DNA of 64,000 bases. Origin: an uncultured Candidatus Saccharibacteria bacterium. Lineage in GTDB: Bacteria; Patescibacteriota; WWE3; UBA101185; UBA10185. Location: contig CAZXUJ010000001.1 in NCBI GenBank assembly GCA_964643995.1, positions 69,622 through 133,621 of the forward strand, given 5' to 3'. Both the position numbers and the translations under genes were made by a program. Of the stretch, positions 6,897 to 49,273 are shown in pieces. Positions within the stretch are counted from its first letter, which is position 1; each line of letters begins with the position of its first letter. The notes beneath the pieces were generated by a model, which was not told the origin of the DNA, searched no databases, and worked only from the letters and a program-made list of their open reading frames with translations.

Positions 6897-6994
6897 AACA
6901 TTCTCCTTAGAACAAACCCTTTAGGGTACGATATATCCATTATTATGCTATAGGATACCTAGGTTGCCAATTTAGATTGACCGCTGCGAAAATT

Positions 6995-8308: not shown

Positions 8309-8310
8309 AA

Positions 8311-28335: not shown

Positions 28336-28393
28336 AGATACAACAATTATATATTTGATGTGACATATTAGAAAGCGTAAGATTAACCAATAT

Positions 28394-32945: not shown

Positions 32946-34672
32946 GTTACTTATACAACTATATTATAGGGTTACTCGAGGATAACACCGGTATTTTTTA
33001 TACACATTGGCTACTAAAAAACCCACAATTTAGTAGTTATATAGGATACCCCACTGGACAACCAGTAGACTTTACCAACACAAGCGAACCGTTATTTCTT
33101 CGAGGTTTTTTCTTCCTAATGGCGAACTTTAATACGGTAGCTTTCTACAACATTTTTATATTGGTATCACTTGGACTTGTGTTGATAACCACATATCTGC
33201 TTTTCAATCATTTCACGAAAACCAAAATAGTAAGCATTATGCTAGCAACACTCTTTACACTCTCCCCATATTTTTATTATCAATCAAGGTCACATGTAAC
33301 TCTTATTCAGTTTTGGCTAGTAGTTTTGTTCGTATATTTTTTGATACAAGCTAAAAGTTTTAAACACTTTTTTTGGCTTGGGCTATATCTTACCCTTGTA
33401 ACTTTAGTTAGTAACTATTTTGCATACTTCTGTTTGTTGATACTAGGTGGTTACTTTTTTGCAAAACAGATAACATACAAAATCTATGGTCTAAAGTATT
33501 GGAGTATGCAAGTGTGGCTGAAATATCTGTTTTGCCTAATCACTTTCTTTGTGACAACCGTTCCAATACTGATGCCGTATTTTAGAGCCTTTTATGGGAC
33601 CAATGACAGCAGTAACCAAACAGAGAGCACTGATTCAAAAGGACTGAATAGAACACTGGAAGACTTTTTTATATTTTCTTCACGACCGTGGTATTTTGTA
33701 CTACCCTCAATAGATAATCCATTTGTTGGTAACGTCACCAACGAAACAGTAAGGTGGCTACAAAATGATTGGGGATATTTCCTTACCCAAAACTACTTTA
33801 AAAGTGAGCACAGTGCTAGCTTTCTCGGCTGGATTAACATTGTGATGGCATCCTACGGAGTTTATCTAGTTATCAGAAGACTTAGAGAAAAACAACTTAC
33901 CACGCCAACAAGTATAGAAGACTCTACTGAATTAAAAATTCTTGCACTCGTGCTAGTTGCAATTTTCTTGGGCATTCTTACGCTTCCTCCATATATTACT
34001 TTGGGTGGAATAAAACTTCATATGCCAAGTTACATCTTATATAAGGTGTTTCCAATGTTCAGAGTACTGACAAGATTAGGTACTGTTATTTTACTTATTG
34101 TGCTAGTCCCCACTGCATATACGTACAAGGAATCTATAACTAAAATAAAGGAGAAAAAGGGAGTATTGGTAAGCACACTACTTATACTGCCGATATATGC
34201 TTTTAGTTTAGCAGAGTTTTTTGTTCCAATAAAACTTACAGATGTGTCACAAATGCCTGAAGTGTTTGAATATGTGAAAACGCAGACACCACAAGATTCA
34301 GTTATTGCGGTGTTTCCATACAGTAGAACAAACACTGCGATGTTCTGGATTAAAGATTTTCAAAGAGCAGTTGTTAATCCTAGAGAGTTCAAGGATCCAA
34401 AGAGAGGTTTTAACTCTGAGAATTTTACAAAGGAGTTAACTAAGTGTGAAGGATTAAGATCTGCAGCTCACTTAGGGGTGAATTATATTGTGGTATTTCC
34501 AAATGCGAATGAAAACACAGAAATTTTTGATAAAACCGCCGGACTTGAAAAAATTGCAGAATTCAGTGCAAGTACAACAAAACAGCGAGTTTACAAATAT
34601 AGCAGCATTGGGTATGCTGGTGCTAACGAAGGCGCAGTAGTATACAAGTTAACGAAAGTCACCTGCGAGTAA
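32942..34672 (+). CDS. Second polytopic membrane protein, putative GT-C-fold glycosyltransferase
   Basis: 576 aa with 10 or more TM helices and a C-terminal soluble domain. 4-nt overlap with the upstream gene. Confidence 0.4.
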   Translation: MSYLYNYIIGLLEDNTGIFYTHWLLKNPQFSSYIGYPTGQPVDFTNTSEPLFLRGFFFLMANFNTVAFYNIFILVSLGLVLITTYLLFNHFTKTKIVSIMLATLFTLSPYFYYQSRSHVTLIQFWLVVLFVYFLIQAKSFKHFFWLGLYLTLVTLVSNYFAYFCLLILGGYFFAKQITYKIYGLKYWSMQVWLKYLFCLITFFVTTVPILMPYFRAFYGTNDSSNQTESTDSKGLNRTLEDFFIFSSRPWYFVLPSIDNPFVGNVTNETVRWLQNDWGYFLTQNYFKSEHSASFLGWINIVMASYGVYLVIRRLREKQLTTPTSIEDSTELKILALVLVAIFLGILTLPPYITLGGIKLHMPSYILYKVFPMFRVLTRLGTVILLIVLVPTAYTYKESITKIKEKKGVLVSTLLILPIYAFSLAEFFVPIKLTDVSQMPEVFEYVKTQTPQDSVIAVFPYSRTNTAMFWIKDFQRAVVNPREFKDPKRGFNSENFTKELTKCEGLRSAAHLGVNYIVVFPNANENTEIFDKTAGLEKIAEFSASTTKQRVYKYSSIGYAGANEGAVVYKLTKVTCE

Positions 34673-34676
34673 ATTA

Positions 34677-35051
34677 ATGAGTGTAAATAACCTAATTGTA
34701 ATACTTTTAGTAATAATGCTTATTGGGATAGTTTTTTTATCAACTAAAAGAAGAATTGAATTGACGGTTCTAGTTTCAATGTTAACAGGGATTACTATGC
34801 TTTACATTGTGAAATTACCGTTTCTTATTAATACTATCAGTATTGTATTTATACTCTTACTACTTATCTGGGCGTTTAAAATTTCTCGAGATATTATCTA
34901 CATCGGAGCTATATTTTTTATATTGTGTAGTGCTGTTTTTCTTCAGTTACAATTTGAACTACCTGCTAAATTTTCGGGGACACTCAGTTTCTTTTTACTG
35001 TGTATTGGTGTAGCTAAGGACATACTTTATGAAAAAACTTTTTCTAAGTAG
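34677..35051 (+). CDS. Small 4-TM membrane protein
   Basis: 124 aa and strongly hydrophobic. Lies within the operon. Confidence 0.4.
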   Translation: MSVNNLIVILLVIMLIGIVFLSTKRRIELTVLVSMLTGITMLYIVKLPFLINTISIVFILLLLIWAFKISRDIIYIGAIFFILCSAVFLQLQFELPAKFSGTLSFFLLCIGVAKDILYEKTFSK

Positions 35052-37116
35052 CATTCTCTGCCTTGCGATGCTATCAATAGGATTTTTCAAAACAACAGCT
35101 GCTGATAAGACAGGCTATTTTGCAAGGCTTCTATCCAGCTGGGATATAGATATATATACGCTCAATGAAAATGTAGAAACTAAGAAATGGGAACTACCAA
35201 AAGACAACGAAGACGACTTTCTACTCCTAACCACCAATCAAATGACACTGATTGGAATGAATCTAGATATGCTACTTTCATACAATAAAGTGATATTAGT
35301 ATGTGACACTAGCGTGGAGTTAAGTAAAGAACTTGCGTGTAGTTTTGATGGTATTACTACCACTTTTCAAAAAACAGAGTTGGCATCGGACAATAGTAAT
35401 AGTATTTTGAACATATTTCTTGGAAACACCAATTTGATAGTTATCCCAGAAGCCGGATTTGTACTACCTAAAAATACCGCTGAAACTACTGCCTATTTTG
35501 AAGCACTTGCTATCTCAAGAGAAAATAAGGCACAAAACAGTGAGGAGAACACTAGGACCGATACTGCAAAGCCTCAATCTGTAGTTATCGAAAACTCAGA
35601 ATTGATAGGTTATTTAGTATTTTTATTACTATTCAATTTTATAGTCGTAATGCCGATAAAAAAATTAAGCAGTACTGGCCGAGTAACATTACGAAATATG
35701 TACACTCAGCAACTTGGCGAACTTAAGAGATTCGTTGATATGTACGAGCCTTTTTCAAAATATTTAGTTACGATGGGGATCTGTGTAAACATCATTGTAG
35801 GAGGTGTTTTTCTGCTGAACAACGGGTTAAGGCTATTACTAGATGCGGCCAAAACACTTCTAGCAACACCAACATTAGCAGACATTGTTGGTTTGGAAAT
35901 CTTCAGTTCCCGATATGCACTAGTATTAGTAATAGTAAATATTCTGTTGCTTGGCGTTTTAAGCCCCATGGTTATTGATAGAGTAATCGCAAACCTAAAC
36001 ATAAAGATGCTGTTACCACAGCACAAAATAAAAGATGATATAGCCAAGTGGATAGTGATAGTTTTCGGTATAGCGGGAATTATGATTGCTTCTACTGGGA
36101 CAATTGCTGAAACACATCATTTATTAACTGCAGTTTTACTGGTTATAACCTATATACTTTTTGTGTCACATGAGTTTAAATTCACGGTTAAAGAAAAATT
36201 ACTGGCTACATGTGTTATAGCAACTGTGGCAATTGTTGTACCAAGTTATAGTTACTACTCTCAGGAGATTTCGATACATATAACTGAAGAAAAATTGTTC
36301 AGTGACTCTGAGAGAATAGTTGTATTGCCATACAAAAGAGTTATAACTAAAAACACAAAAATAAAAGAGTTCACTACAGGAATTGATTTTCCAATCTTTA
36401 TTGAACACCAACTTATATACCACCCAAGTTACCCGAACATTGTCAACAAAAATATTGAAAGCATTGATCTAACAAATAACTACATGGTAGTAACTAAAGG
36501 TAAAAAAGACTACATCAACACCTTGCTTTCATTTCCAATATTACTAAAACACGTTGAGGCAAATGGTGTAAGTGAGTTCTTTTATACCGAAACAAACTTT
36601 GCACAAACAGATACCGTAGCAGTCAAAATGACAATAGATTGTTCAAAAGATACGTCAGCAAAGGAAATATATCTAGAAAAGTATAGGTTATCTACGGACC
36701 CCGAACAATTTAACTTACTTATTTTTCCAGGATGCACACCAATGCAAAAGGAACTAACATATACAGCTCCAATTGATACAAGATATATGCAACAACCTGG
36801 TATCTTTCAAATTCAAAACTTCTCAAAAGTTAGATTTAGTAAAATAGTGCTCCAAGTCAATGGCGTTGATGTGGAACCAAAGTATATTAAGACTCCAAAC
36901 GACTACCAACAACTTGGCACAGGACAAAATAAGCTAGACTCCACAGAACTGTATGTTTATTCCCAAGAAACTGAGGATGATACAAAGTATAAAAACACGA
37001 CCAAGGACGTAAACATAGGTTCACTCATAAATACTGCCCTAGAAACTATGAATATAGAAAATAATTTCGTAATGTGGTCAAGTGCAGAAAATGCAATAAT
37101 TAAAAACGTACAGTAA
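35029..37116 (+). CDS. Hypothetical secreted/membrane protein (signal peptide, central 6-TM block, C-terminal domain)
   Basis: 695 aa. The signal peptide is MKKLFLSSILCLAMLSIGFF, and the hydrophobic block spans about aa 190-400. Confidence 0.45.
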   Translation: MKKLFLSSILCLAMLSIGFFKTTAADKTGYFARLLSSWDIDIYTLNENVETKKWELPKDNEDDFLLLTTNQMTLIGMNLDMLLSYNKVILVCDTSVELSKELACSFDGITTTFQKTELASDNSNSILNIFLGNTNLIVIPEAGFVLPKNTAETTAYFEALAISRENKAQNSEENTRTDTAKPQSVVIENSELIGYLVFLLLFNFIVVMPIKKLSSTGRVTLRNMYTQQLGELKRFVDMYEPFSKYLVTMGICVNIIVGGVFLLNNGLRLLLDAAKTLLATPTLADIVGLEIFSSRYALVLVIVNILLLGVLSPMVIDRVIANLNIKMLLPQHKIKDDIAKWIVIVFGIAGIMIASTGTIAETHHLLTAVLLVITYILFVSHEFKFTVKEKLLATCVIATVAIVVPSYSYYSQEISIHITEEKLFSDSERIVVLPYKRVITKNTKIKEFTTGIDFPIFIEHQLIYHPSYPNIVNKNIESIDLTNNYMVVTKGKKDYINTLLSFPILLKHVEANGVSEFFYTETNFAQTDTVAVKMTIDCSKDTSAKEIYLEKYRLSTDPEQFNLLIFPGCTPMQKELTYTAPIDTRYMQQPGIFQIQNFSKVRFSKIVLQVNGVDVEPKYIKTPNDYQQLGTGQNKLDSTELYVYSQETEDDTKYKNTTKDVNIGSLINTALETMNIENNFVMWSSAENAIIKNVQ

Positions 37117-37122
37117 AAGATT

Positions 37123-38292
37123 ATGAAAATCGCATTTTATATAACTACAATTTTAGAACAGGGAGGTGGAAGTCAGGAATATCTTATAACAACAGCTAAA
37201 AAGCTTTCGGAACTTTATGGTCATAATGTTGACATTGTAGGGCTTGATGACAAATATACAGTTACATACTTAAGATTTTTCTTATGTATTTTTTATCTTA
37301 AATACGTGCGCAAATCGCATTTTTACAATGAAAGTCTCACCTCAATAAGGGCAAGGTTAGGAAAAGTTAAGTATGTGAAGTGCAAAAGCTTTAAGGAACT
37401 GAGGGATACCTTAAGTAAATATGACGTAGTATATAGTAAAAACGAGTTGTTAGAGGCTTTATTATTTAGTGGAGTTATAGGTTTTGAAAACATTGGTCCC
37501 GTAATATTCGCATGCGTAACAAGCATAAACTTTACTGGCAGTACTTCACCCCAAGCAATAATACGAAACAAATTATACAACGGAAGTGTTTACAAATTTC
37601 TTTGTCGCAATGTAAAAGCCTTTCACGTTCTAAATTCACACGACGAACATTTCCTACAAAAACTTTTCCCTAGCAAAAGAATATATAGGATTTGCCCATC
37701 ATTTAATTTCGACGAGTTTAAAAGACTTTCCAACGAGTATCCTGCAAACTTTGAGTTCGATGGTTCCGCAATAAACATAATTTCAGTGGGTAGACTAAGT
37801 ATTCAAAAAGGTACTGAAGAACTAATCAAACTTATAGACGAAATAAATGAACAGCAGCTTAATAACAAAGTTGTATGGTACATAGTCGGAAAAGGTGAAG
37901 AAGCTGCAAAGGTCGAGGCACTAGTCGCTAGATGGAAAAATGTAAAATATCTTGGTTACATAGAGAATAAATTCCTTCCAAGTATCCTAGAAAACATGAG
38001 TTTATATATATCCCTAAGCAAAGGTGAAACTTTTGGATATACTATCGTCGAAGCAAATACTTTTGAAGTACCAGTTATATCCTACGATCTTTCTGGACCA
38101 CGAGAACTTGTGGAACAAGGAAAAAATGGTTATTTAGCAAAAGATTATGAGGACTTCAAAAGAGCACTTATAGACTTTTTAGAAGGTGATCTTCACTTTA
38201 CGGATGTTGAGAAAGTAGTGCGGGATAGGCTGGATGCTAGGATAATTTATGGCAAAATATTAAAAATGTTCGAGGAGGTTTACAATAAATAG
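37123..38292 (+). CDS. Glycosyltransferase family 4 (GT-B)
   Basis: C-terminal EX7E-type motif ETFGYTIVEANTFEVPVISYDLSGPRELVEQGKNGYL. Confidence 0.8.
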   Translation: MKIAFYITTILEQGGGSQEYLITTAKKLSELYGHNVDIVGLDDKYTVTYLRFFLCIFYLKYVRKSHFYNESLTSIRARLGKVKYVKCKSFKELRDTLSKYDVVYSKNELLEALLFSGVIGFENIGPVIFACVTSINFTGSTSPQAIIRNKLYNGSVYKFLCRNVKAFHVLNSHDEHFLQKLFPSKRIYRICPSFNFDEFKRLSNEYPANFEFDGSAINIISVGRLSIQKGTEELIKLIDEINEQQLNNKVVWYIVGKGEEAAKVEALVARWKNVKYLGYIENKFLPSILENMSLYISLSKGETFGYTIVEANTFEVPVISYDLSGPRELVEQGKNGYLAKDYEDFKRALIDFLEGDLHFTDVEKVVRDRLDARIIYGKILKMFEEVYNK

Positions 38293-38293
38293 T

Positions 38294-39154
38294 ATGAATG
38301 AAGAAATACTCAACCTAGAAGGGTGCACAAAACGCAATAATAACCTTTACACATTTGACTCCAAGTTCTCTAGCGACCTTAAATTCTCAATTGAGAAATG
38401 GGACTCATGGTATAAAGAAAAGCTAAAGTCAGGATCATACAAAAAAGATTTCTACTACTATAAAGAAAATTATTTTCCACTTACTATTGCGCAACTTGAA
38501 AAAAGTAAGCCACTAAATAAGGATATTGTATTTTTGGAGATTGGAAGTGGAGAATTCTTTTTGGGAAATCTAATTGCAAACAGAGTTAAGTTGGTCATAG
38601 GAGTTGATCTGTGCCCTACAGCCCTAAAGATAGCCCAAGAAATGTTCGAAAATGCTGGAATAACAAATTATTTACTGATCCAAGCGGATATACTTGATAT
38701 GCCACTAAAAGATAATGTGATAGACCTAATATATGGTGGAGGAACTATTGAACATTTCAAAGACACACAAACCTGCATAGACGAACTATACAGAGTTCTT
38801 AAGCCAACAGGTGTGAGTTTCAACACTGTGCCCTACCTAAATATTGGGTCACTAACCTATCGGCAAATTTGGGGCAACATACCAAACTTCCCCATTTTGC
38901 GAGAACTAGCAGAACTTATACATATAAAAATACTTGGTGGAAAACACATGGTCTTCGGATATGAGTTTTCTTTTACTATCCCGCACTTACGCAAACTACA
39001 CGAAAAGGCAGGGTTCAAGAAAATTGAAATTACAAAGTTTGATGTGCACCTAAAGTTTGAGTATATACCTCATTGGCTTAGAAAACCTTTCATATGGTTA
39101 TCGTCAAACGTTGCAGCTTTTTGGCCAATGATCAAAGCTGTTGCTGTAAAATAA
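38294..39154 (+). CDS. Class I SAM-dependent methyltransferase
   Basis: VFLEIGSGEF motif I, GGGTIEHF and LKPTGVSF. Confidence 0.7.
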   Translation: MNEEILNLEGCTKRNNNLYTFDSKFSSDLKFSIEKWDSWYKEKLKSGSYKKDFYYYKENYFPLTIAQLEKSKPLNKDIVFLEIGSGEFFLGNLIANRVKLVIGVDLCPTALKIAQEMFENAGITNYLLIQADILDMPLKDNVIDLIYGGGTIEHFKDTQTCIDELYRVLKPTGVSFNTVPYLNIGSLTYRQIWGNIPNFPILRELAELIHIKILGGKHMVFGYEFSFTIPHLRKLHEKAGFKKIEITKFDVHLKFEYIPHWLRKPFIWLSSNVAAFWPMIKAVAVK

Positions 39155-39291
39155 TAAAAATATACTTGCAGCAAAAAGTATGACTGATGATAGATTTAGA
39201 CATGATGCTCGAAAAATACTTAGGAACTTCGATCAAAAAGCTTTAAAAATTATGGAAGGTGCTTAAGGGCTAAAGCATTCCACTGCTCCGG

Positions 39292-39840
39292 TTATAGATT
39301 AGAAGATTCAAATTGAGTGGGTCTAACTATAACAGCATACTCCACCTGCACCCGCCTAGTTGCTTCTTCTAGCCCCTCGCAATCACCTTGTAATAACCAG
39401 TCTTTCATGAGTTGAACCATTTCGGTTAGTGTTATTTTGTGACTATAGAGCAACCTTGCTAGGCCTGCGGGGACCCCAGAGTATGATTGAATATCCGGAG
39501 TATCGCCTAGACTTGGCAAAGACCTTACACCAGGCCAGGTACCTCTTCCATGCTGATCAGCTTTAGCTATTGCAGCAACCCTTGTTAACAGGTCTTCGGC
39601 TCTAGCAGCAGACTCAGGCGTCGATTGCTCCCAACAGTAGGTTGTGGATCTATGTTACCTTCTGTACACATTTTCGCCAAAGTTGGATCGGCAACCTCTA
39701 TACCAAGCAATCTTTTTCCCCTAATTAGTTCATCCAAACCAGCATCTCTAGCATTTAGCAAGATATAGTCATAAATATCAGGAATAGCAGGTTTCTCTAT
39801 TGAAACCCAATTTTCATCTTTTATTGATTATCGAAAGTCC
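39292..39840 (-). pseudogene. Frameshifted, start-less gene remnant
   Basis: Minus-strand translation gives ...SIEKPAIPDIYDYILLNARDAGLDELIRGKRLLGIEVADPTLAKM...LLL [frameshift] AEDLLTRVAAIAKADQHGRGTWPGV...VEYAVIVRPTQFESSNL. There is no start codon, one frameshift at least, and only a 75-aa ORF survives. Confidence 0.35.
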
Positions 39841-39949
39841 ATTTATAACAATTAATAGATCGTTAGATTTGATTTCTATCTTTGAAAAGTTGTTACTCAA
39901 AGACATAAACATAAATGTAGTCAACAGAATAACAGAAAAACACACTGGG

Positions 39950-40798
39950 TTATTTTGTATCTATTATGGTGCCGTCAGCATCATATATTATTGCTTTTAT
40001 AGTTTCTACTACTTCGGGTTGTTCTAGAAGGGCGGTTAGGTTATCTATAACATGGAAGTTCGCGTTCCTAAACAGAGATTCATCTGAAAGCGGATACATC
40101 TTTGCGGATTCATCACCCCCAGGCTGCAAATAGTAGATATGGCCTCCCTGCTCTAATATATGTTTTATTGCATCTAGATCCCAATTATTATCACCAACAT
40201 AAGCAATTTCTGCTTTTTTAATACCTTGTGCTTCGAATGTAGCGGTTGCTGTTTTTAAAGCTTCAACTTTGTTACCACTAACATTAACTTCCACGCCATT
40301 CACGTAACCTGTTTCTTCGTCATATGTAAATCTATTTGCAAATGCATTTTCAGGGGGAATCCCTAATTCTGCTACTGCAGGATCTACTAAATACTTAAAA
40401 CCAGAGCTAACAACCGCAGCTTGCACTCCGCGCTCTTTTAATAAAGGTAGTGTTTCTTTTGCGGCTGATGTGGCCTCGGATGCAGGAAGCATACTCTCTA
40501 AATCACCTTCTTTAGGAAGTCTGCCTTTAATAGCTCTATAAGTCGAAGTGAAATTTTTAACTTCCCAAACTATAAGACCTTGATAATCAGCTTCTGTTCT
40601 TCCACTGGCTGCAAAAATCTGAATTTGCGTTTTAAGTTCCTCTTCTATCCCTAGTTGTTCAGCAACGAACATATAAGGATTTTCACCACCTTTGCTTCTT
40701 TTGTTTGCAGGAGTAACCTCAGGTTTGGCTGTCGCAACAATAGAATATTCAGCATCAGGAATGTATTTTGCTTCGTCAGTCATAAGATGATTATACAT
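39950..40798 (-). CDS. HAD-superfamily hydrolase-like protein with atypical motif order
   Basis: Motifs II-IV appear in order: VVSSGF (II), SGNKVEAL (III K) and IAYVGDNNWDLDAIK (IV). A canonical motif I (IIYDADGTIIDT) lies at the extreme C-terminus just before the stop. Confidence 0.5.
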   Translation of the reverse strand: MYNHLMTDEAKYIPDAEYSIVATAKPEVTPANKRSKGGENPYMFVAEQLGIEEELKTQIQIFAASGRTEADYQGLIVWEVKNFTSTYRAIKGRLPKEGDLESMLPASEATSAAKETLPLLKERGVQAAVVSSGFKYLVDPAVAELGIPPENAFANRFTYDEETGYVNGVEVNVSGNKVEALKTATATFEAQGIKKAEIAYVGDNNWDLDAIKHILEQGGHIYYLQPGGDESAKMYPLSDESLFRNANFHVIDNLTALLEQPEVVETIKAIIYDADGTIIDTK

Positions 40799-40925
40799 TG
40801 ATTAAAAATATAAAGAAACAAAAGGTTCAATCTTTGCATCAGGGTATTAATAAAGGTAATTTTTTTGAACCAAAAGACTGTCGTAATACAGGGGATAATA
40901 TGTGTATGTTCGTAAACAGTCCCAT

Positions 40926-41001
40926 TGGGGTGGCCGACCGGGCTCGAACCGGCGACATCCTCTTCCACAGAGAGGCGCTCTACCACTGAACTACGGCCAC
41001 C
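40926..41001 (-). tRNA. tRNA-His (anticodon GTG) with an encoded G-1 and 3' CCA
   Basis: Cloverleaf: acceptor G(-1)-GUGGCCG/CGGCCAC-C-CCA, anticodon stem CCUCU/AGAGG, loop CUGUGGA, T-loop UUCGAGC. Confidence 0.9.
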
Positions 41002-41046
41002 AGGTAAAGTATCATTCTGAATTATAACATTGAGTTTTTATATGAT

Positions 41047-42492
41047 CTAATTTGTCCTAAGATAGCGCCAATTTGCGAAATCTAGGTATCTGTCTTGCAC
41101 GGTAAAGGTATACTTCTCCCCTATCCCATCAATAAACCTACTTACATAATAGTTCTTAAATGGATGATACAAAAAGATTGCTGGGATCTGTTCCACAATA
41201 ACTTTTTGGAATTCGTTGTAATGAATAACTATTTCATCTGGATCTAGAGCATTGCGACCTTCCTCTAGTGCCCGATCAGCACGAACATGTTCAAAGTTTG
41301 AGAGATTCAACCCTGGGGCTTCTTTTTGAGTTGAGTGCCAATTAGCATACCGCCCAGGGTCACGGCTAGTTTCTTGCCCAAAAAGCAAAATCTCATAATC
41401 GCGAGACACTATAACGTCTTGGACAAAAGTGTCTGGTTTTCGCACATCAATTTTGAGGTCAATGCCAAGTTTTTCTTTCCAAATTTGTCTTATGCTTTCT
41501 GCAACTTCACGATGTGTCTCAATGTCTGGAATCGTTAATGTCAGATCAAGTTCTAAATCTTCTGCTAGTTTGGGGTCAAATGGATTAAAATCCAATTCCT
41601 GATTCGTAAGAATACTCCTGCTTATTGGACCTTCGACTAAGATACCCCGCTCATAAATTAACTGCTCTTTGTTAATTACTTTTTGGAGTTTGTCCCTGAG
41701 AGTAATGTCCTTGATAGAATCTCGATCTAAATTAAAGAAAAGTGCAAAGTAGACGCCTTGGATTGGAAATTTGTGGTTTTTGAAATTTTCTAGGTCAACC
41801 TTCTTCTCGGTCATAAATGCATCTATCTCACCAAGCTTAGCTGCAGTTACTAACTCATCGTCGTTGCTGTAGTACCTAAAGATCATTTTTTTTATTGGAT
41901 GCTCGGGGTTGTTGTTACGAAGAATAATATCCTTAACAATAGGACCACTATGTTCCACACGAATAACTGTAAACCCACCGCTAGATACTGGTAACAAAGG
42001 GGAATAATTCTCCTGGGAATTATCTTTCATAATCCCTACAGTTAGCAGGTTAAGAAATGAAGAAAGTTTATTTGGGAGAATAAACCGAACTGTCTGATCG
42101 TCCACCTTGTCTGTACCAACATACTGAAGGTCATCAAGTTTAAAAGATGTATAGATAATATCATCTGCAGTTATTTTTGATCCGTCCGACCAATATTGGT
42201 CTGGTTTTATGGTTACTGTATAAACAAGCCCATCATCAGACTCCGCCCAGCTTTCTGCGAGATCTGGTACTAGGTTACCGAAGTTATCATATTTAAAAAG
42301 CCCACGATAAATAAGACCGGAAATAGTTTGATCTGTTTGTGTTTTTGCCAGGTTTGGCAAAAAAGATACAGGTTGGCCAGTGACGCCCTCTACAAACTGA
42401 GGTGTCGGAGAAATAGTAAGCAGAAAGGAACTTATAAAGAATCCTAATTGGTACAAAATATTCATATTTGTAGGTATTTTATCAGTTGGCAA
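41047..42492 (-). CDS. ABC transporter substrate-binding protein, family 5 (oligopeptide/nickel type), orphan
   Basis: Signal peptide, then GLIYRGLFKYDNFGNLVPDLAESWAESDDGLVYTVTIKPDQYWSDGSKITADDIIYTSF (SBP_bac_5 N-terminal signature). No permease or ATPase genes are adjacent. Confidence 0.8.
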   Translation of the reverse strand: MPTDKIPTNMNILYQLGFFISSFLLTISPTPQFVEGVTGQPVSFLPNLAKTQTDQTISGLIYRGLFKYDNFGNLVPDLAESWAESDDGLVYTVTIKPDQYWSDGSKITADDIIYTSFKLDDLQYVGTDKVDDQTVRFILPNKLSSFLNLLTVGIMKDNSQENYSPLLPVSSGGFTVIRVEHSGPIVKDIILRNNNPEHPIKKMIFRYYSNDDELVTAAKLGEIDAFMTEKKVDLENFKNHKFPIQGVYFALFFNLDRDSIKDITLRDKLQKVINKEQLIYERGILVEGPISRSILTNQELDFNPFDPKLAEDLELDLTLTIPDIETHREVAESIRQIWKEKLGIDLKIDVRKPDTFVQDVIVSRDYEILLFGQETSRDPGRYANWHSTQKEAPGLNLSNFEHVRADRALEEGRNALDPDEIVIHYNEFQKVIVEQIPAIFLYHPFKNYYVSRFIDGIGEKYTFTVQDRYLDFANWRYLRTN

Positions 42493-42586
42493 GAATTGAG
42501 CAAGTTGACAAATCTACCAACACTAGAGTTGGTATTTTAGTTGGTTTATTGATAAAATAGGATAGCTTTTAGGTATGATTTTAGAC

Positions 42587-42661
42587 GGCCCCATCGTCTA
42601 ATGGTCAGGACGCCAGGTTTTCATCCTGGTAATCGGGGTTCGATTCCCCGTGGGGTCACCA
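42587..42661 (+). tRNA. tRNA-Glu (anticodon TTC)
   Basis: Acceptor GGCCCCA/UGGGGUC, anticodon loop UUUUCAU, T-arm CGGGG-UUCGAUU-CCCCG, 3' CCA encoded. Confidence 0.9.
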
Positions 42662-42768
42662 ATGAAATTTATCCCAATACGTTGGTCGAATCATCTAATG
42701 ATTTTTTGCCACGCGCTCCTCTTTTTATATTTAAAAAGTCACAAAATTTATAAAAGTGCGATATAATA

Positions 42769-43824
42769 ATGACAGTGAACAAGAAATTATTTCGTCCTCC
42801 CATAAATCTCACTCTTTTAAGGAAATTGATTATTGTTTTTGCCTTCTTGTTCATTTGTTTTCTTACCTTTTTTGTTTATCAGGATCTTTTTATTCGTAAA
42901 AATTGTGTTGGTCCCTGGGGCAGCCAAGCTTGTCGGGGTTTTGAAGCTAATAATATATGTTTCGGTTATCGTTATCCGGTTTGTGGTTCACCAAATCTTC
43001 CTTATTTGCTTACTCAAGAAAAAAGTATAGTACCGTTATATATTGGTGAAACAGAAAAAGGTTGCAGAGAATTTTTTGAGGCAAACTGCCCTATCCACCT
43101 TGGATGCCAGATGATGTGTACGGACTCATATCCATCACATTGTTCTTGTGGAGGTAGATTTTTTAACACTATCAATTTGATTCCAGCTGAAAAATGCATC
43201 CTAGAAACATATGAAACAGAAAACATTCCTAATATTGCAAAAAATGAAATGAAATATGGGATATATTTACATGAAGCATTTTTGCCAACAGAGAACATAA
43301 GTGAGGCTGCCTCCTGTCTAGAGCGCTATCCTAATAAAGAATTTTATGCATATCTCCAATTGACCGAAGCACCTACTGAGGATATTGAAAAACTCTTTGA
43401 TGAACATGGTATGTTTTTACACTTTGCAGCAAGAAACCTATTGTATACAATAAAATTCCCTGCCGAAACAAAGCTGTCAAAAGAAATAAAAGATCACATA
43501 AGGTGGATTGGTGTTTTGGATGTGAAACACAAAGTATCTGAAGACTTGTGGTATGGCACTGTTGACGAATCGGCCTTGACTGAAAATGGTGATGTAAAAT
43601 TGATCGTGAGTTTTTGGGCAGAAGAAAAAGAAGATGGTGCGCGTAAAATTCTGGATAAATATAATGCTTCAGTTGAATCATTCTCTGTTCGCGAAATCAA
43701 GCAAGGTATTAGGTATATAAGTACGCAAATTACAATGAATCCAATTAATTTGCGTGGGTTAGCCTCTGAAAATACAGTAATCGGCATAAGCACAGTTTCT
43801 CCCCCACCAGAAATCTCTAACTAA
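42769..43824 (+). CDS. Hypothetical cysteine-rich secreted protein
   Basis: N-terminal signal/TM. Cys-rich module of about 100 aa (CVGPWGSQAC..C..C.., CREFFEANCPIHLGCQMMC...CSCGG), then a 200-aa domain. The start is uncertain because a TATAAT hexamer lies immediately 5' of the annotated ATG. Confidence 0.5.
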   Translation: MTVNKKLFRPPINLTLLRKLIIVFAFLFICFLTFFVYQDLFIRKNCVGPWGSQACRGFEANNICFGYRYPVCGSPNLPYLLTQEKSIVPLYIGETEKGCREFFEANCPIHLGCQMMCTDSYPSHCSCGGRFFNTINLIPAEKCILETYETENIPNIAKNEMKYGIYLHEAFLPTENISEAASCLERYPNKEFYAYLQLTEAPTEDIEKLFDEHGMFLHFAARNLLYTIKFPAETKLSKEIKDHIRWIGVLDVKHKVSEDLWYGTVDESALTENGDVKLIVSFWAEEKEDGARKILDKYNASVESFSVREIKQGIRYISTQITMNPINLRGLASENTVIGISTVSPPPEISN

Positions 43825-43859
43825 CAATCATTTTAATAATTTTCTTTTGCTTTTATAAC

Positions 43860-44396
43860 TTAAACTGAAATGTAGGTATTAAACAACGGTTGCGCCACCT
43901 CTAATGATTCAAACTGTTGAGCCTTGGGCTCACCCATAAAGAATGAGGAGGTATCACTACCTCCTTTTTTCTTGACAAATCGCACTAATTTAGGTGTTCC
44001 AAAAGTCAATTCATCATAGGTTGGAGGTTGCTCAAAAAGGGGTACTTGACAATAGTCTGACAGTTGGTTTGCAGACCATGCTTTTACTACTTTCCACTTT
44101 ACATCCCCTATCTGAACGTCTTCATTAAGTTTTACTGTTTTAACTGAATCCTTAGTCTCTTTTACTTTTTGTGAATTTGTATCGTTGTTGGAAGTATTTT
44201 TAGAATCTGATCCAGTACTTGTCTTACTTGATGATCCACCAGCTGAAGCGATGATACCAATAATAAACAAGACCAATATTCCTGTGATAATTGGGTGTTT
44301 TGCAAAGAATCCTCTTTGATCTTTTTTGCAGTATGGGAATATCTTAGCTTTTTGATCAATGTCAGTTTGACAATATTTACATTTTTTAGTCGCCAC
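43860..44396 (-). CDS. Zn-ribbon / TM / extracellular-domain protein
   Basis: N-terminal CKYCQ...YCKK zinc ribbon, one TM (ITGILVLFIIGIIASAGG), an S/T/N-rich linker and a beta-rich C-terminal domain. Confidence 0.5.
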   Translation of the reverse strand: MATKKCKYCQTDIDQKAKIFPYCKKDQRGFFAKHPIITGILVLFIIGIIASAGGSSSKTSTGSDSKNTSNNDTNSQKVKETKDSVKTVKLNEDVQIGDVKWKVVKAWSANQLSDYCQVPLFEQPPTYDELTFGTPKLVRFVKKKGGSDTSSFFMGEPKAQQFESLEVAQPLFNTYISV

Positions 44397-44590
44397 TCAT
44401 ATCACCCCCTTTGAAAATTTGAAATTATTCTTCTGTTCAATGGATGACGCAATAATTTGATTAAGGCAACTAAATAGACCGCTTCGGTATGAGAGACCGT
44501 TTCAAAATTGGCGCTTTTTATGAGTAGTTTTGTTTGTTGTTAAAGGTAGAAATACTGTTTTCTCAAAGTAAAAGAGCATAAAATCCCTCA

Positions 44591-45486
44591 ATGTTTAAAA
44601 AAATCCTAAATGTAAAATATGCAACCTGAATAATAATGTCATTAGACGTGGCCTTCGAAATGGAAAGATTAGATATAAATGTAACTCCTGTAATGCTTGG
44701 TTTTTTGTAGATAAATCCAAAGCTGTTAGCAATAAGAAAATATTAACTCATCATATCGATGGCACACCTTTTAGAGCTCTTGCCGAACAAAATAAATCTT
44801 CGGCAACAACAGTGTATCGTAAAAACCTTTCTGCTTTAAAACAACTGATTCATTGTGCCGATATAACTCGTAAATATTGTAATAGATATTGTGGAATATT
44901 AGTTGTTGACGGTAAATATCTTGCTGTCAGAAATTATGACCGTAAAATACCAGTGCTTTACGGTATTGATTACCTCTCCCACGATATCCCAAAATATAAG
45001 CCTTTTATGGCTGAAATAAACCAACTCTTTAAAAAGAAATTATCATACGGCGTTTTTGTAAACCAAGCTAAATCAATTTATGAAAAATATAAAGCTGATC
45101 CAAAATGTAAGTCAGTGATGCTTGATATGCGAGATAAATTACCACTTCTTCTTGCACATCTTCAAACTAAACACATCCCAAGAACAACTAATCTAATCGA
45201 ATGTTTTAACTCTCATCTTCAAGGTCGTTTAAAAACAATAAAAGGTTTTAAATCTTTTAAACATGCTGACCTTTGGTTAAATGCATACTTCATTCGTCGT
45301 AGATTTAAAAAATTTAAGGATTGTAAAGGTCAATTTAAATGCCTAAATGGTAGAAGATCAATCGATATTGTTGTAAACACAGAACTAGTTGGCCTTGGTA
45401 TAGTTTCATTACTAGCTATAGAAAAAGACCGCGAGTCTCTAAACCCATTGGTTAAAAAAACCCACGATTTAGTTGGCATGCTTTAA
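44591..45486 (+). mobile_element. IS1/IS1595-like transposase gene (Zn-ribbon plus DDE domain) needing a -1 shift at an A7 run
   Basis: After a 4-codon leader (ATG 44591, MFKK) and a -1 shift in AAAAAAA (44597-44603), the frame encodes PKCKICNLNNNVIRRGLRNGKIRYKCNSCNAWF (CxxC...CxxC ribbon), then a DDE region (VVDGKY...GIDYLSHD...TTNLIECFNSHLQGRLKTIKGFKSFK). No in-frame start codon exists for the long frame. Terminal inverted repeats were not confidently identified. Confidence 0.65.
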
Positions 45487-46041
45487 ATAAATCACAATAC
45501 CCAAAGAAAGTATTAAAAAGTTTTTGAGAATATACTGTCCAACAAGCGTTGGCACTAAAAAATTCTCCCAAGCTATTGCCGGTAAAAAGACTAATGGACC
45601 AAAAGTAGTCACTATGTGAACCACAGTAAGTGATAAGACTATTTTCTCCACTTTTGGGATGAGCCACAGTATTCCTATAAAAACCTCGAAATATCCGAGA
45701 ATTAGTATGAAAACGTCTATAGACATAAATGGAAAGGTTTTATCAAGCAGACTCGCTACCAACTCATGGGCAGGACTATATCCAATCAGTTTTAGACTAC
45801 CGAACCAAAAATAAACTATAAAAATAGAAATACGGGAAAACCAGATATAGTATTTCTCAAAAAAAGCATGCATGAAATAACGATAGTCCTTCTTGATTAT
45901 AAATTCAACTAGATCTATTCTTATGGCGAAGTTCCAATTAAATTTAGTTGTATGATGTACACTTATTTTATCTTTAGTATTAGGTATAGTTTTGATTTCT
46001 CTTGTGATTTCTACTTCCCTGCTATTCTCAAAACGAGTCAA
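45469..46041 (-). CDS. Hypothetical 5-TM membrane protein
   Basis: 190 aa and hydrophobic. Its 3' end overlaps the transposase 3' end by 18 nt. Confidence 0.45.
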   Translation of the reverse strand: MTRFENSREVEITREIKTIPNTKDKISVHHTTKFNWNFAIRIDLVEFIIKKDYRYFMHAFFEKYYIWFSRISIFIVYFWFGSLKLIGYSPAHELVASLLDKTFPFMSIDVFILILGYFEVFIGILWLIPKVEKIVLSLTVVHIVTTFGPLVFLPAIAWENFLVPTLVGQYILKNFLILSLGIVIYLKHAN

Positions 46042-46583
46042 TTGCCTTCCAAACGGAATTAAGGAGATATCTTGAACTTGTAGAGCTGATAAGCACTAGG
46101 AGACTTAAAAGCAAACGACATAGTGTTGATATAGTTACAAATGCCGAAATAATACAGGCATGCGTAAAGAGTTGGGGCACTAATTGTTATTCAAGGTGAA
46201 GACAGTAGTGAACAGATATCTGAGGGGGGAATAATTTTTGATAAGATCGTTTCAGGAGAGATTCTTTCGAGTATATTCGAACTTAGCACAGAAGAACATG
46301 ATGGTGCTGTGATAATTGAGCAGGATAGAATATTGAAATTTGGTGCGCAGTTACCCCTATCAATCAATTTTAGAGAAATAGGAAAGCATGGCACATTCAC
46401 AGTGCGGGGCGTGGACTAGCAGAAAAGTCTGATGCACCAGTGATTATAGTCTCAGAGGAAAAGTGTTTTATAAGTATTGCGTATAGAGGAAAACTTAAAA
46501 GACTTACAAATTACGATCAACTAGGACAAATTCTAGATAAAAAACTCAGGAATCAAGGAGAGGTCCTATGTCTTATAAAATAG
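46008..46583 (+). pseudogene. Diadenylate cyclase (CdaA/DacA-like DAC domain) pseudogene, 5'-truncated with at least 2 frameshifts
   Basis: Three frames spliced together: ...DIVTNAEIIQACVKS | GALIVIQGED...EEHDGAVIIEQDRILKFGAQLPLS...REIGKHG | HIHSAGRGLAEKSDAPVIIVSEEKCFISIAYRGKL. These match the DAC motifs GALIVI, HDGAVII, LPLS, (T)RH.AA.G.SE..DA and VVSEE.G.IS. There is no N-terminal TM region and no start codon. Confidence 0.6.
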
Positions 46584-46621
46584 CCGCAGTTTTTTTGGCA
46601 ATTATACTCAAATTTATATTA

Positions 46622-47515
46622 TTAAAAGCTCAGGAGATCAATTAATACAGTTCTAAGGTCCTTCTGAGTTGTTTTAAGTAAATTGGACTCCACATCATAC
46701 TCATATTCCGCAGGGATAGTGGTAGGAAATAAACCAAAGAGTTTTTCAATCTTCGTACCCATAAGAGTATATTTAACGGAATCCCCATTAACATTTACTG
46801 AGATTTCATCGACAGAGTCGAGCTTTTCCGAGGAAATTGTCTCACGTACAACTTTATCTGGAGTAGTTGTTAGATCCACAAGGTTTGTATCTGTTTCAAT
46901 AAAAAACTTGCCCTCCTCCTCGACTATTCTGTTTGTGGAACGCATCTTAACAGGCACACTATGTGTTACAACTTTTCTAGTAGGTTGTTCTTTCTTCACC
47001 TCTTCAGTTACCTCAACAGGCAAATCATTGACCAAGGCATCTAGATCGGCTGTGGTATCCTCACCACCGTCGTCTGGTGTAGGTAACAAAGAGTCTATTT
47101 CATTTAAATACTTTGCATCTTTGGAGGGTTGAGGGGTTTCTTTAAAATAAGTTTTGGCTGCTTCATTTGCTGCTTCCTTAGGATCGATACCCTTCTCAAC
47201 TACCACAACATTATCTGGTATATCCTTTACAGTTTCAGTCTCACGAAGCAAATTACCAGCCAGGTCATAGGTTCTTATTTTTATGTAAATCTTTCCATCA
47301 CGATATTCCTTTCGCATAACAGCTTTTTTTTTGCCTTCCTGCATGGTATTTTCAAAAACAGACCCCTCCTCAATATAAGTCTCCCCTGCTACTGCGATTG
47401 GGGATTCGCGCAAAAACGAGCCTGCTGCGACTACAAAAGAGATAAATAATCCCAAAGCAATAATCGGTAAATGAAGTGAGTAGAACGTGATTAATTTTGT
47501 TTTGGGCATATTCAA
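46622..47515 (-). CDS. Hypothetical secreted protein (N-terminal signal-anchor)
   Basis: 297 aa. A TM/signal (LITFYSLHLPIIALGLFISFVVAAG) precedes an acidic, Thr/Glu-rich extracellular region. Confidence 0.5.
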   Translation of the reverse strand: MNMPKTKLITFYSLHLPIIALGLFISFVVAAGSFLRESPIAVAGETYIEEGSVFENTMQEGKKKAVMRKEYRDGKIYIKIRTYDLAGNLLRETETVKDIPDNVVVVEKGIDPKEAANEAAKTYFKETPQPSKDAKYLNEIDSLLPTPDDGGEDTTADLDALVNDLPVEVTEEVKKEQPTRKVVTHSVPVKMRSTNRIVEEEGKFFIETDTNLVDLTTTPDKVVRETISSEKLDSVDEISVNVNGDSVKYTLMGTKIEKLFGLFPTTIPAEYEYDVESNLLKTTQKDLRTVLIDLLSF

Positions 47516-47580
47516 ATTGTATCAGCATCAATATAGAGTTACAATTTATTTACTATGGGAAAAGGCAGTGAGACATTACA

Positions 47581-48354
47581 TTGGTACCCGAACAAAGTAC
47601 AGAGCCAGTTACCGAGGAAGATGTAGATTGGTTAAGGGATCTAGTGGCTCGCTATGGTACAGATGATGACAATCCAACAGAAGATAGCGAGAAAATTGTA
47701 CAAAACATTTTGGCGGATACAGATGACCGAACTCCTGAAGAAATTATTGCACTGCAATTCGAGATGGAGGAAGCTGCAAGAGAAAGAAAACCTGGCAAAG
47801 GTGGAACCAAACCAAACACAAAACAAAAAAATGCCAGAGCAGCCCAGTTAAGAGAGGAACAGATAAGGAACTCGCGCGAAAACAGAAATGAAGAAACAAT
47901 ACAAACTTTGCAAACCCAACTAGAGGGAAGTGAACTTTTCAAACTTGTTAAAAATGATGATCCCGACGCCGACTTCTTCGTAGAAACGTACGCGCATTGG
48001 GTATGCGTATCGATTGAGAATCACGGCAATCCAGTGTTGACACAAGGCGATATCTCAATCGAGAATTTTAAGAGAGCCAGTGGTCCTGGTGGACAGAATA
48101 TGCAAAAAGGCGAATCAGCACATCGTGCAGGGCATGTCTGGTCTGGGATTGTAGTCGAAGCTAGCAATCGAAGTAGTGAACAAAGTGAGAGAGAAGCCAA
48201 AGAAAAGTTGGAGGTAAAACTTAAAGAAAATATTGCAACTTGGGAAAATTATCTAGGCACAGCGAAAATAGATATGAAACCTAACGAAGGTATCTGGGAT
48301 GCTAGGGAAAGAGCAATAAGAACTCAAGTATACAAAATGGCACGGGCAACATAA
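47581..48354 (+). CDS. Protein with a C-terminal RF-1-type GGQ peptidyl-tRNA hydrolase domain and a novel acidic N-terminal region
   Basis: TTG start. The C-terminal half contains RASGPGGQNMQKGESAHRAGHVWSGIVVEASNRSSEQSEREAKEKLEVKL, which aligns with the release-factor GGQ core (SGPGGQHVNKT-SAVR.TH.PTGIVV.CQ.ERSQ..N...A...L). The PxT/SPF codon-reader domains and the basic ArfB-type tail are absent. Confidence 0.65.
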   Translation: MVPEQSTEPVTEEDVDWLRDLVARYGTDDDNPTEDSEKIVQNILADTDDRTPEEIIALQFEMEEAARERKPGKGGTKPNTKQKNARAAQLREEQIRNSRENRNEETIQTLQTQLEGSELFKLVKNDDPDADFFVETYAHWVCVSIENHGNPVLTQGDISIENFKRASGPGGQNMQKGESAHRAGHVWSGIVVEASNRSSEQSEREAKEKLEVKLKENIATWENYLGTAKIDMKPNEGIWDARERAIRTQVYKMARAT

Positions 48355-48364
48355 AATCACCTTA

Positions 48365-49273
48365 ATGGGAAAAAGCCTAGATAAAAAATTAATACAACGA
48401 GAGCAAAAGTTCAGAGAACGTGTGTCTAGAACACTTAATGTTGGAGACGAAGTTATTGCGAGTATGTTTGGAGAGAAACTAAGTTGTTTGAGAATTAACA
48501 CTTTAAAGTTTAAACCTGAGGAAATATACGCAAAAATAAAAGATCTCGCAGAGCTTGAAAAGATCGACTGGATTGAAAATGTTTTTGTTATCAAAAAAGG
48601 CAAGGACAAGCTTACACACAGTGAATTTTTCGAAAACGGAGCTTACTATATCCAAAATTTATCAAGTCTAGTGCCCGTGTTAGTTCTTGACCCTAAGCCT
48701 AATGAAGCCATTCTTGACGTGTGTGCAGCACCAGGCGGTAAAACAACATATTTAGCTCAGCTCACCAAAAACCAAGCACAGCTAGTGATAAATGATGAAT
48801 CAAACATAAGATTGATGAGAACCAAACAACTATGCAAAAATTATGGAGTAAAATTGGCAGGAACATTTAATCAGCCAGCACAATACTTAACAAAACACCT
48901 TAATATAAAATTTGATGCTATATTGATCGACGCACCTTGTAGTGGAGAGGGACTTATAAATTTGAGTATACCGGAATCATTGCAATACTGGAGCACAAAA
49001 AAAATTAATAGACTAAAAAAACTGCAAAAGCGGATTTTGGAGGAATCCTATAAATTGTTGAAATCCGGTGGGAGAATAGTTTATGCCACATGCACAACCG
49101 CACCAGAAGAAAATGAGGAGGTGATTGCTAACCTATTAAAAAATCATAATGACGTAGAGAGTGTGGAAGTTATATTACCAATAAAAAATACAGTAACTGT
49201 AGACAATTCGGTGCACATAATCCCAGACAACATATTTCAAGCCTTCACGATCTCTACAATCATCAAACGATAA
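48365..49273 (+). CDS. rRNA (cytosine-C5) methyltransferase, RsmB/RsmF (NOL1/NOP2/Sun) family
   Basis: DVCAAPGGKTTYLAQL (SAM motif I), ILIDAPCSGEGL (motif IV with catalytic Cys) and VYATCTTAPEENEEVI (motif VI TC). Confidence 0.8.
   Translation: MGKSLDKKLIQREQKFRERVSRTLNVGDEVIASMFGEKLSCLRINTLKFKPEEIYAKIKDLAELEKIDWIENVFVIKKGKDKLTHSEFFENGAYYIQNLSSLVPVLVLDPKPNEAILDVCAAPGGKTTYLAQLTKNQAQLVINDESNIRLMRTKQLCKNYGVKLAGTFNQPAQYLTKHLNIKFDAILIDAPCSGEGLINLSIPESLQYWSTKKINRLKKLQKRILEESYKLLKSGGRIVYATCTTAPEENEEVIANLLKNHNDVESVEVILPIKNTVTVDNSVHIIPDNIFQAFTISTIIKR

Follow-up and report, generated by a model that had tools for sequence, protein, structure and literature searches.

A strain-variable insertion hot spot beside tRNA-Glu, flanked by conserved genes, in an uncultured WWE3-lineage bacterium

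Does the DNA between a pair of tRNA genes and an rsmB-like gene in an uncultured Candidatus Saccharibacteria bacterium (GTDB lineage WWE3) represent one integrated island? We analyzed 64,000 nucleotides (nt) of contig CAZXUJ010000001.1 (NCBI GenBank assembly GCA_964643995.1), a stretch that we call the window, and focused on its positions 40,926 to 48,354. A preliminary description of these 7.4 kb had proposed a tRNA-bounded accessory island or the remnant of an integrated element. The features that it listed are all present: tRNA-His and tRNA-Glu, a solute-binding protein (SBP) gene, genes for a cysteine-rich (Cys-rich) and a zinc-ribbon (Zn-ribbon) protein, a transposase-like open reading frame (ORF), and genes for an acidic protein of 295 amino acids (aa) and a protein with a GGQ domain (Table 1). 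Our analysis, however, supports with a probability of about 0.75 that the proposed island is three kinds of DNA and not one, namely a conserved unit, an insertion hot spot and ordinary backbone. This reading is carried by the observed boundaries, homologies and decay lesions, and by the recombinases found in relatives.

The tRNA-Glu boundary and the hot spot beside it

Most comparisons were made with a relative that we call REL (Logan contig SRR12072159_190506, 88.9 kb), for which loci L008 and L013 were merged into 36 kb. The REL proteins share 92% (SBP) and 77% (GGQ protein) identity with those of the window. The other relatives were L015 (NCBI GCA_964385105.1; SBP 60% identical), L019-L021 (SBP 90% identical), L011 (DNA 80% identical across the stretch with the 295 aa, GGQ and rsmB genes) and L010 (GGQ protein about 65-75% identical). 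From 45323 onward, the window is matched at 100% identity by L001-L003, which are Logan assemblies of its own strain. A search of the GTDB species genomes with RsmB returned no close relative, the best match being a Patescibacteria bin at 37% identity. Window and REL are collinear in three blocks, at 13.9-26.1 kb, over the SBP gene with its tRNAs, and at 45.3-54.3 kb. Between these blocks the window has 42.66-45.3 kb where REL has an unlike 11.5 kb, and 26.1-40.9 kb where REL has 3.4 kb of other genes.

The middle block, consisting of tRNA-His, the SBP gene and tRNA-Glu, is a 1.7 kb unit conserved among WWE3-like relatives. The SBP passes the family 5 domain test and has hundreds of homologues of the same length in WWE3/Patescibacteria, 54-67% identical and many of them named candidate division WWE3; in REL and L015 its gene is flanked by the same tRNAs. 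Both tRNA 3' ends of the unit point outward, into strain-variable DNA. REL and L019 have the same tRNA-Glu sequence as the window, L015 has one that is 93% identical, and all four flanks diverge immediately past ...GGGGTCACCA. Similarly, tRNA-His is identical in REL at 76/76 nt and homology ends at its 3' end, while two Logan contigs terminate within tRNA-Glu. Because the four flanks diverge there, tRNA-His behaves alike and two Logan contigs stop at the same place, we consider the boundary at the tRNA to be real and recurrent. In a separate observation, no tRNA-His was found downstream of the SBP gene in L019 (2,156-2,526), unlike in the window, REL, L015 and L017.

Directly 3' of tRNA-Glu, positions 42,662-45,377 (about 2.7 kb) are a real strain-variable insertion hot spot: the four related genomes carry four unrelated sequences at this site. 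In REL, the gene of a 576 aa large serine recombinase with Resolvase and recombinase zinc-ribbon domains abuts tRNA-Glu (PHROG 95 integrase, E 2e-35), and small ORFs adjoin it, including one for a terminase-small-subunit-like protein (phrog_4102, E 6e-15). L015 carries a different recombinase of 498 aa in exactly the same geometry (PHROG 95, E 2e-73), in an element whose cargo is a type III restriction-modification system. The two recombinases are merely 25% identical to each other. In our model, the 3' end of tRNA-Glu(UUC) is a landing site for integrative elements in the WWE3-like lineage, and the window's hot spot retains only the debris of successive events.

Some further details of these elements were recorded. 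The recombinase genes (L013 8116-9880 and L015 7500-9030) both end about 40 nt inside tRNA-Glu on its antisense strand, and therefore their last 14 or so codons are encoded by the 3' half of the tRNA. In front of each lie two ORFs, of 281 aa and 54 aa, which show no detectable similarity between the two elements. REL's version of the variable segment also contains a purF-like amidophosphoribosyltransferase gene (L008 3,387-4,742), of which there is none in the 64 kb.

Thus, the claim of a tRNA-bounded island was borne out in part. The boundary at the tRNA-Glu 3' end is sharp and the DNA is variable to about 45,377, but the variable part does not reach rsmB; in gene order, the left 2.7 kb vary from the tRNA boundary onward while the right 3 kb are collinear with REL.

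Successive layers within the hot spot

The layer nearest to the tRNA is a 1.3 kb cassette made up of the last 12 nt of tRNA-Glu, a 107 nt leader, the Cys-rich gene and about 125 nt of 3' flank. It has a nearly identical counterpart in L023 (ENA ERZ25038499 NODE_167) and in L024, an independent Logan assembly of another run, so that two assemblers produced it; nothing else within the 13 kb of L023 that were read matches the window. In L023 the homology starts at the 12-mer GTGGGCTCACAA, opposite the tRNA-Glu end GTGGGGTCACCA in the window. The two resemble each other, and the 12-mer at the border of the cassette copy in L023 is a degenerate version of the tRNA-Glu 3' end. L023 has a GC content of 0.348. 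None of 10 L023 proteins has a cluster-mate at ≥90% identity in the window's assembly, and 2 of the 10 cluster with Woesebacteria/Microgenomates proteins; the NCBI taxonomy treats WWE3 as a candidate phylum of its own.

The simplest reading of these sequences would be a recent horizontal movement of the cassette, linked to the tRNA-Glu 3' sequence. Since the cassette has no known mobility gene, its mode of movement is something that we infer: the window's copy would have been delivered by recombinase-mediated integration. We hypothesize that tRNA-Glu 3' ends may be a shared landing pad that moves near-identical cassettes between candidate phyla (WWE3, Woesebacteria). L023 has a further feature of its own: a tRNA-Glu(CUC) lies in the same orientation 3 kb upstream of the cassette (6,801-9,895). 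The 3 kb between this tRNA and the 12-mer contain a 277 aa gene, a Fic gene and a 173 aa gene, and Fic-domain genes flank the cassette on both sides. This layout looks like an island inserted between tRNA-Glu and the cassette.

Searches with the Cys-rich protein found no family in Pfam, NCBIfam, PADLOC or PHROGs and no relative in scans of JGI metagenomes and IMG/VR. We also considered whether the window holds a defence island and rejected it; the same four collections gave nothing for the Cys-rich and 295 aa proteins. Furthermore, phage genomes searched by tblastn gave no match to the Cys-rich or the Zn-ribbon protein.

The Zn-ribbon gene comes next. Over residues 2-118 only, its protein matches two phage families of unknown function (PHROG 14275, E 4.7e-10; PHROG 806, E 1.1e-8); no relative was found in REL, L015 or L019, and an IMG/VR scan gave no match. 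The right edge of the cassette (43949) coincides with a hairpin at 43945-43966. Because the last 30 or so codons of the Zn-ribbon gene lie within the cassette, the C-terminus of the protein is probably chimeric, overwritten by the cassette. This suggests that the Zn-ribbon gene would be older than the cassette.

The third layer is the relic of an insertion sequence (IS). L012, a fuller IS copy from the same sample series that is 85-87% identical, has a right end whose reverse complement matches the left inverted repeat of the relic. Among the best 120 of 953 transposase homologues, most carry PF00872 (Mutator/IS256), and they are typically 330-350 aa long on contigs of 1.1-1.3 kb. The full-length homologues pass Pfam PF00872 Transposase_mut at 25-31 bits (cut-off 21), and their best NCBIfam matches are IS256 NF033543 and its Zn-binding variant NF048019, at 48-61 bits against a cut-off of 150; the window's copy itself has no Pfam match. 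The preliminary description had named an IS1/IS1595-like transposase, a guess that arose because the N-terminal zinc domain matches IS1. The IS1 model covers this zinc-binding domain only (residues about 5-80), the catalytic part matches IS256 models, and the element is most likely a Zn-binding variant of the IS256/Mutator family.

This copy is damaged in several places. It has no in-frame start codon, and 72 codons covering the conserved CDDN...QLCQNH region are missing near 44989-44999. In the DNA this corresponds to the loss of about 205-216 nt, with 11 nt of microhomology. The sequence follows the IS to 45377 and then continues as the 3' end of an ATP-grasp-like gene, whose intact 451 aa orthologue in REL (L008 6384-7739) gives weak ATP-grasp matches. 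As judged from the alignments, the ORF annotated as a transposase is chimeric, joining a dead IS to a deletion scar. The right end of the IS is deleted.

We infer an order of events in which a deletion beginning inside the IS would have taken its right end, most of the ATP-grasp gene and anything upstream of that gene. The IS would afterwards have lost its 72 internal codons and died. The cassette would be the recent acquisition that brought in the Cys-rich membrane-anchored protein and replaced the 3' end of the older Zn-ribbon gene.

Independently of this, we observed a quirk at the start of the transposase frame. At 44,591-44,612 and in L012 1-20, the sequence TTT AAA AAA A comes after an ATG, and the frame without stops (KNPKCKIC...) lies at -1 to this ATG. 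The quirk is common to two IS copies that are 85% identical to each other. With regard to the missing transposase start, the conserved A7 run suggests that ribosomes may slip by -1 in a programmed manner immediately behind the start codon, or that the start is non-canonical.

Table 1 Features of the interval and its right-hand neighbor
Feature	Position	Strand	Basis or remark
tRNA-His(GTG)	40926-41000	-	ARAGORN and Rfam; 3' end faces left variable region 26.1-40.9 kb
SBP_bac_5 solute-binding protein	41047-42492	-	Pfam E 4.6e-30, 105 bits vs cut-off 32
tRNA-Glu(UUC)	42587-42661	+	ARAGORN and Rfam; 3' end is left edge of hot spot
Shared cassette	42650-43949	+	98.97% nt identity over 1264 nt (42650-43913) plus 42 nt at 90%, to L023/L024
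Cys-rich membrane-anchored protein, 351 aa	42769-43824	+	13 Cys; N-terminal hydrophobic anchor
Zn-ribbon/single-transmembrane protein, 178 aa	43860-44396	-	CxxC...C zinc ribbon, one transmembrane segment
IS256-family relic (Zn-binding variant)	44493-45377	+	Left inverted repeat about 44493-44520; homologue and DNA comparison
Transposase-like reading frame (chimeric ORF)	44599-45486	+	ORF list
ATP-grasp ligase-like gene, last 36 codons, in-frame fusion to IS relic	45378-45486	+	Three-way alignment
DUF417-like membrane protein, about 134 aa	45469-45873	-	84% aa identity to REL; weak DUF417 match
cdaA (diadenylate cyclase) pseudogene	46038-46630	+	Matches REL CdaA residues 72-286 in four frames
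Acidic membrane-anchored protein, 295 aa	46622-47509	-	77-81% identical in REL and L011, syntenic
RF-1/GGQ-domain protein, 257 aa	47581-48354	+	Pfam RF-1 PF00472 E 1.9e-10, 41.2 bits vs cut-off 35
rsmB/F	48365-49273		3' of GGQ gene

The base composition of the interval had been described as AT-richer than its surroundings. We found this for the IS relic only, with a GC of 0.313, and the lowest-GC 1 kb segment of the whole 64 kb (GC 0.317) falls on it. The interval as a whole has a GC of 0.361 (window mean 0.378, sd 0.029), and the part with the 295 aa and GGQ genes reaches 0.402. The expected deviation in codon usage was likewise confined to the relic, whose GC at third codon positions (GC3) is 0.205 against a mean of 0.316 (sd 0.040), about 2.7 sd below. 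Promoter and terminator scans gave nothing above chance.

The backbone toward rsmB and its GGQ-domain protein

The DNA from 45,378 on is ordinary backbone common to relatives, and 45.3-48.4 kb align collinearly with REL, amino-acid identities being about 77-90%. An accessory label, which the preliminary description had given to every gene of the interval, does not fit the SBP gene with its hundreds of homologues, nor the syntenic genes for the small membrane protein, the 295 aa protein and the GGQ protein. In the membrane-protein gene, mismatches against REL fall 22/5/72 over the three codon positions. A 190 aa ORF version of this protein reaches 46041, and the extension past about 134 codons is not conserved.

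The decay of cdaA that had been noted earlier was confirmed: the gene is a true pseudogene, and its REL orthologue is intact (287 aa, passing TIGR00159). DNA alignment against REL revealed deletions of 14, 1, 12 and 25 nt, and the start, the transmembrane region and about 70 N-terminal codons are gone. The pseudogene is 100% identical in the independent Logan assemblies L001-L003, and so its lesions are not errors of one single assembly. In L011 (1-334, compared with window 46,000-46,620), unrelated DNA occupies the cdaA position. Because cdaA is intact in REL, decayed in the window and absent at this position in L011, this lineage may not need cyclic di-AMP (c-di-AMP) signalling and may be losing it. 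The decay would then represent ongoing gene loss, independent of any element. Literature searches on cdaA in candidate phyla, and on islands linked to tRNA genes in these bacteria, gave no result.

Both the 295 aa gene and the GGQ gene accompany rsmB as conserved partners. Mismatches in the 295 aa gene are distributed 38/32/157 by codon position, indicating purifying selection, and its product has no family in Pfam, NCBIfam, PADLOC or PHROGs. For the GGQ gene the distribution is 38/25/115, again indicating purifying selection, and its adjacency to rsmB is kept in four strains. The first 55 or so residues of the GGQ protein are lineage-specific and weakly constrained: mismatches there run 16/11/22, and these codons contain a stop in L010 and a frameshift in L011.

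An exhaustive search with the GGQ protein yielded 127 representatives, about 100 of which are 180-240 aa long and match query residues about 60-230. Members share a Gly/Lys-rich basic stretch, a helical part with an invariant Y..W, the GGQ domain, in which GGQ itself is invariant, and an H..W..YL motif. At 50% identity the family forms about 100 clusters of proteins of about 190-210 aa, with an acidic N-end before the basic stretch. One member comes from WWE3, and in L022, the one distant homologue for which context was available, the gene is not beside rsmB. A metagenome scan with the family alignment caught the GGQ motif only and returned mostly ordinary RF1/RF2 genes.

How does this protein relate to known release and rescue factors? 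Like ArfB/YaeJ/ICT1 and PrfH, it has a GGQ domain with the conserved GGQN(V/M)(N/Q)K and a small core of about 200 aa, and its basic low-complexity stretch could act like a rescue-factor tail. In contrast to ArfB, where this stretch is C-terminal, it is N-terminal in the window's protein. The protein also has no rtcB neighbor and scores below every curated cut-off: prfH 49 bits (cut-off 167), prfB 36 (370) and prfA 31-35 (400+), with no match to an ArfB model. A PDB search with the family profile placed the GGQ domain nearer to RF1/RF2/PrfH, with E about 1e-22, than to ArfB/ICT1, with E about 1e-8; the alignments covered only profile positions about 100-170. No codon-recognition domain was detectable, and only the GGQ domain matches known factors.

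The main text of a review of release-factor families (PMC6514570) lists no such GGQ family, and we found nothing on it in the literature. It is possible, although we hold it to be unlikely, that the protein stands for an as yet undescribed class of stand-alone factors, for ribosome rescue or peptide release, in WWE3 and related candidate phyla. By analogy, we hypothesize that the N-terminal basic segment might play the mRNA-channel-probing role of ArfB's C-terminal tail. The unnamed family could offer a starting point for work on ribosome rescue in these organisms and may merit a separate study.

On the other side of the conserved unit lies a second strain-variable region (26,074-40,925), which is a 15 kb polysaccharide/glycosylation cluster. 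It contains Polysacc_synt_2, epimerase, GT2 and GT4 genes, several methyltransferase genes and genes for three proteins of 576-695 aa without a family. Within it, the reverse strand of 39,280-39,800 is a stretch of 45% GC (window 37.8%) with two ORF fragments of 58 and 75 aa, separated by a frameshift and without a Pfam match. This stretch is probably a pseudogene relic of foreign origin.

Other explanations and comparison with known systems

Several observations weigh against reading the interval as an integration hot spot set between conserved unit and backbone. In the window, tblastn with both relatives' recombinases found no remnant of a recombinase or integrase, and only the tRNA-overlapping tail matched. 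A direct repeat of the tRNA-Glu 3' end downstream, which the preliminary description had suggested, was searched for in vain: the window has no second copy that resembles an attachment (att) site (16-mer with ≤3 mismatches; 12-mer with ≤1). A repeat of this end was likewise not found in REL, and searches for direct and inverted repeats that would mark att sites or IS ends across 40-50 kb gave chance-level matches only. Moreover, the Cys-rich and Zn-ribbon genes are ordinary in composition and codon usage, the left IS junction and the internal IS deletion come from a single assembly, and the long-range synteny comes from one relative, REL, whose 11.5 kb may mix ancestral backbone and element. 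As for the repeats, serine recombinases do not create long ones, and the missing tRNA 3' repeats are consistent with such enzymes, though not proof of them.

If no mobile element had been at work, the interval would reflect lineage-specific gains and losses, with the tRNA boundaries a coincidence. The absence of an integrase and of repeats from the window, and a composition that is normal except in the IS relic, would agree with this. Such an account is nevertheless quite improbable given breakpoints that in four genomes fall precisely on the 3' nucleotide of the tRNA, the same behavior at tRNA-His, two different serine integrases at the same spot, a 99% identical cassette in an unrelated contig and an IS relic with a recognizable inverted repeat. 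The opposite extreme, a single integrated element or island running from tRNA-Glu to rsmB (42.7-48.4 kb) with every gene as accessory cargo, is the least credible of the alternatives. The collinearity of 45.3-48.4 kb with REL, the GGQ-rsmB pair in four strains, the codon-position patterns of purifying selection, and GC and GC3 values of the right-hand genes that are ordinary or above average all argue against it. This holds even though gene orientations are mixed, several functions are unknown, a transposase and a pseudogene lie inside the interval, and L011, which has no cdaA beside its 295 aa gene, indicates some variability to 46.6 kb.

An assembly artefact would place the hot spot in a different light, as the contig could have been mis-joined across a repeated IS, with the tRNA-Glu side and the cdaA/GGQ side not being neighbors. 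The same-strain Logan assembly does break inside the IS relic (L001 starts at window 45323), and related IS copies occur in the same sample series. We regard a mis-join as very improbable, however: in REL a single contig carries both the SBP/tRNA-Glu unit and the ATP-grasp-cdaA-GGQ block, ordered and oriented as in the window, L001 independently spans the IS/ATP-grasp junction with its 54 nt of IS 100% identical, and L012, at 85-87% identity, is too divergent to collapse in assembly. A question of a different kind is whether the L023 cassette belongs to a strain of the same species, as a second copy or after rearrangement of the locus, and is not the product of cross-phylum transfer. From another part of a genome of about 1 Mb one would indeed expect no other region in common with the 64 kb, the GC content of L023 is similar, and metagenome bins do not always carry dependable taxon labels. 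Against this stand the L023 proteins, with their lack of ≥90% cluster-mates in the window's assembly and their two Woesebacteria/Microgenomates clusters, while the window's SBP and GGQ family point to WWE3; we therefore consider a same-species origin improbable, if less so than the three preceding alternatives. The reading that we prefer remains a conserved unit, a hot spot and backbone.

Nothing here is a new kind of system. The cdaA pseudogene keeps DAC-domain sequence (HDGAVII, PLS and SEE motifs) at the place where the relative has an intact cdaA, but unlike CdaA (TIGR00159) it is frameshifted at least three times and has neither a start codon nor the three-transmembrane membrane domain. 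The IS relic resembles IS256 in that its homologues pass PF00872, in the conserved VDGK...YGID...TNxxE...N motifs, and in an imperfect terminal inverted repeat of about 27 nt shared with the fuller copy. It differs from IS256 in that all NCBIfam matches are well below their cut-offs, marking a divergent subgroup common in candidate-phyla bacteria, and in that the window's copy has lost the middle catalytic region, start codon and right end and cannot transpose. For annotation, the transposase ORF should be treated as chimeric, the membrane ORF as about 134 aa and not 190, and cdaA as a pseudogene. The relatives' enzymes, with Resolvase N-terminal, Recombinase and zinc-ribbon domains, resemble those of large serine recombinase elements and prophages (PHROG 95; XisF/CcrB-like by NCBIfam); they sit at the edge of strain-specific DNA and occur in REL and L015, not in the window.

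In tRNA-linked genomic islands, elements are inserted at the 3' end of tRNA genes, and such islands and integration hot spots have reportedly been described before (e.g. Williams 2002, Nucleic Acids Res). The present locus resembles them in its boundary exactly at a tRNA 3' end, in content that differs between close relatives, in the relatives' integrases at the same site, and in the accretion of unrelated pieces and an IS. It differs from them in that the window's copy has no integrase or att repeats, the variable part is only 2.7 kb long, the relatives' integrases are large serine recombinases and not the usual tyrosine type, and the host, an uncultured candidate-phyla bacterium of the WWE3-like kind, has a very small genome. 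An insertion hot spot that is linked to a tRNA gene and has decayed is thus a known kind of phenomenon, here in an under-studied lineage, and of modest interest. Taken together, the site combines serine-integrase elements in relatives, an apparent IS-mediated deletion and near-identical DNA common to another lineage, and very small candidate-phyla genomes would thus still hold classical tRNA-linked insertion hot spots.

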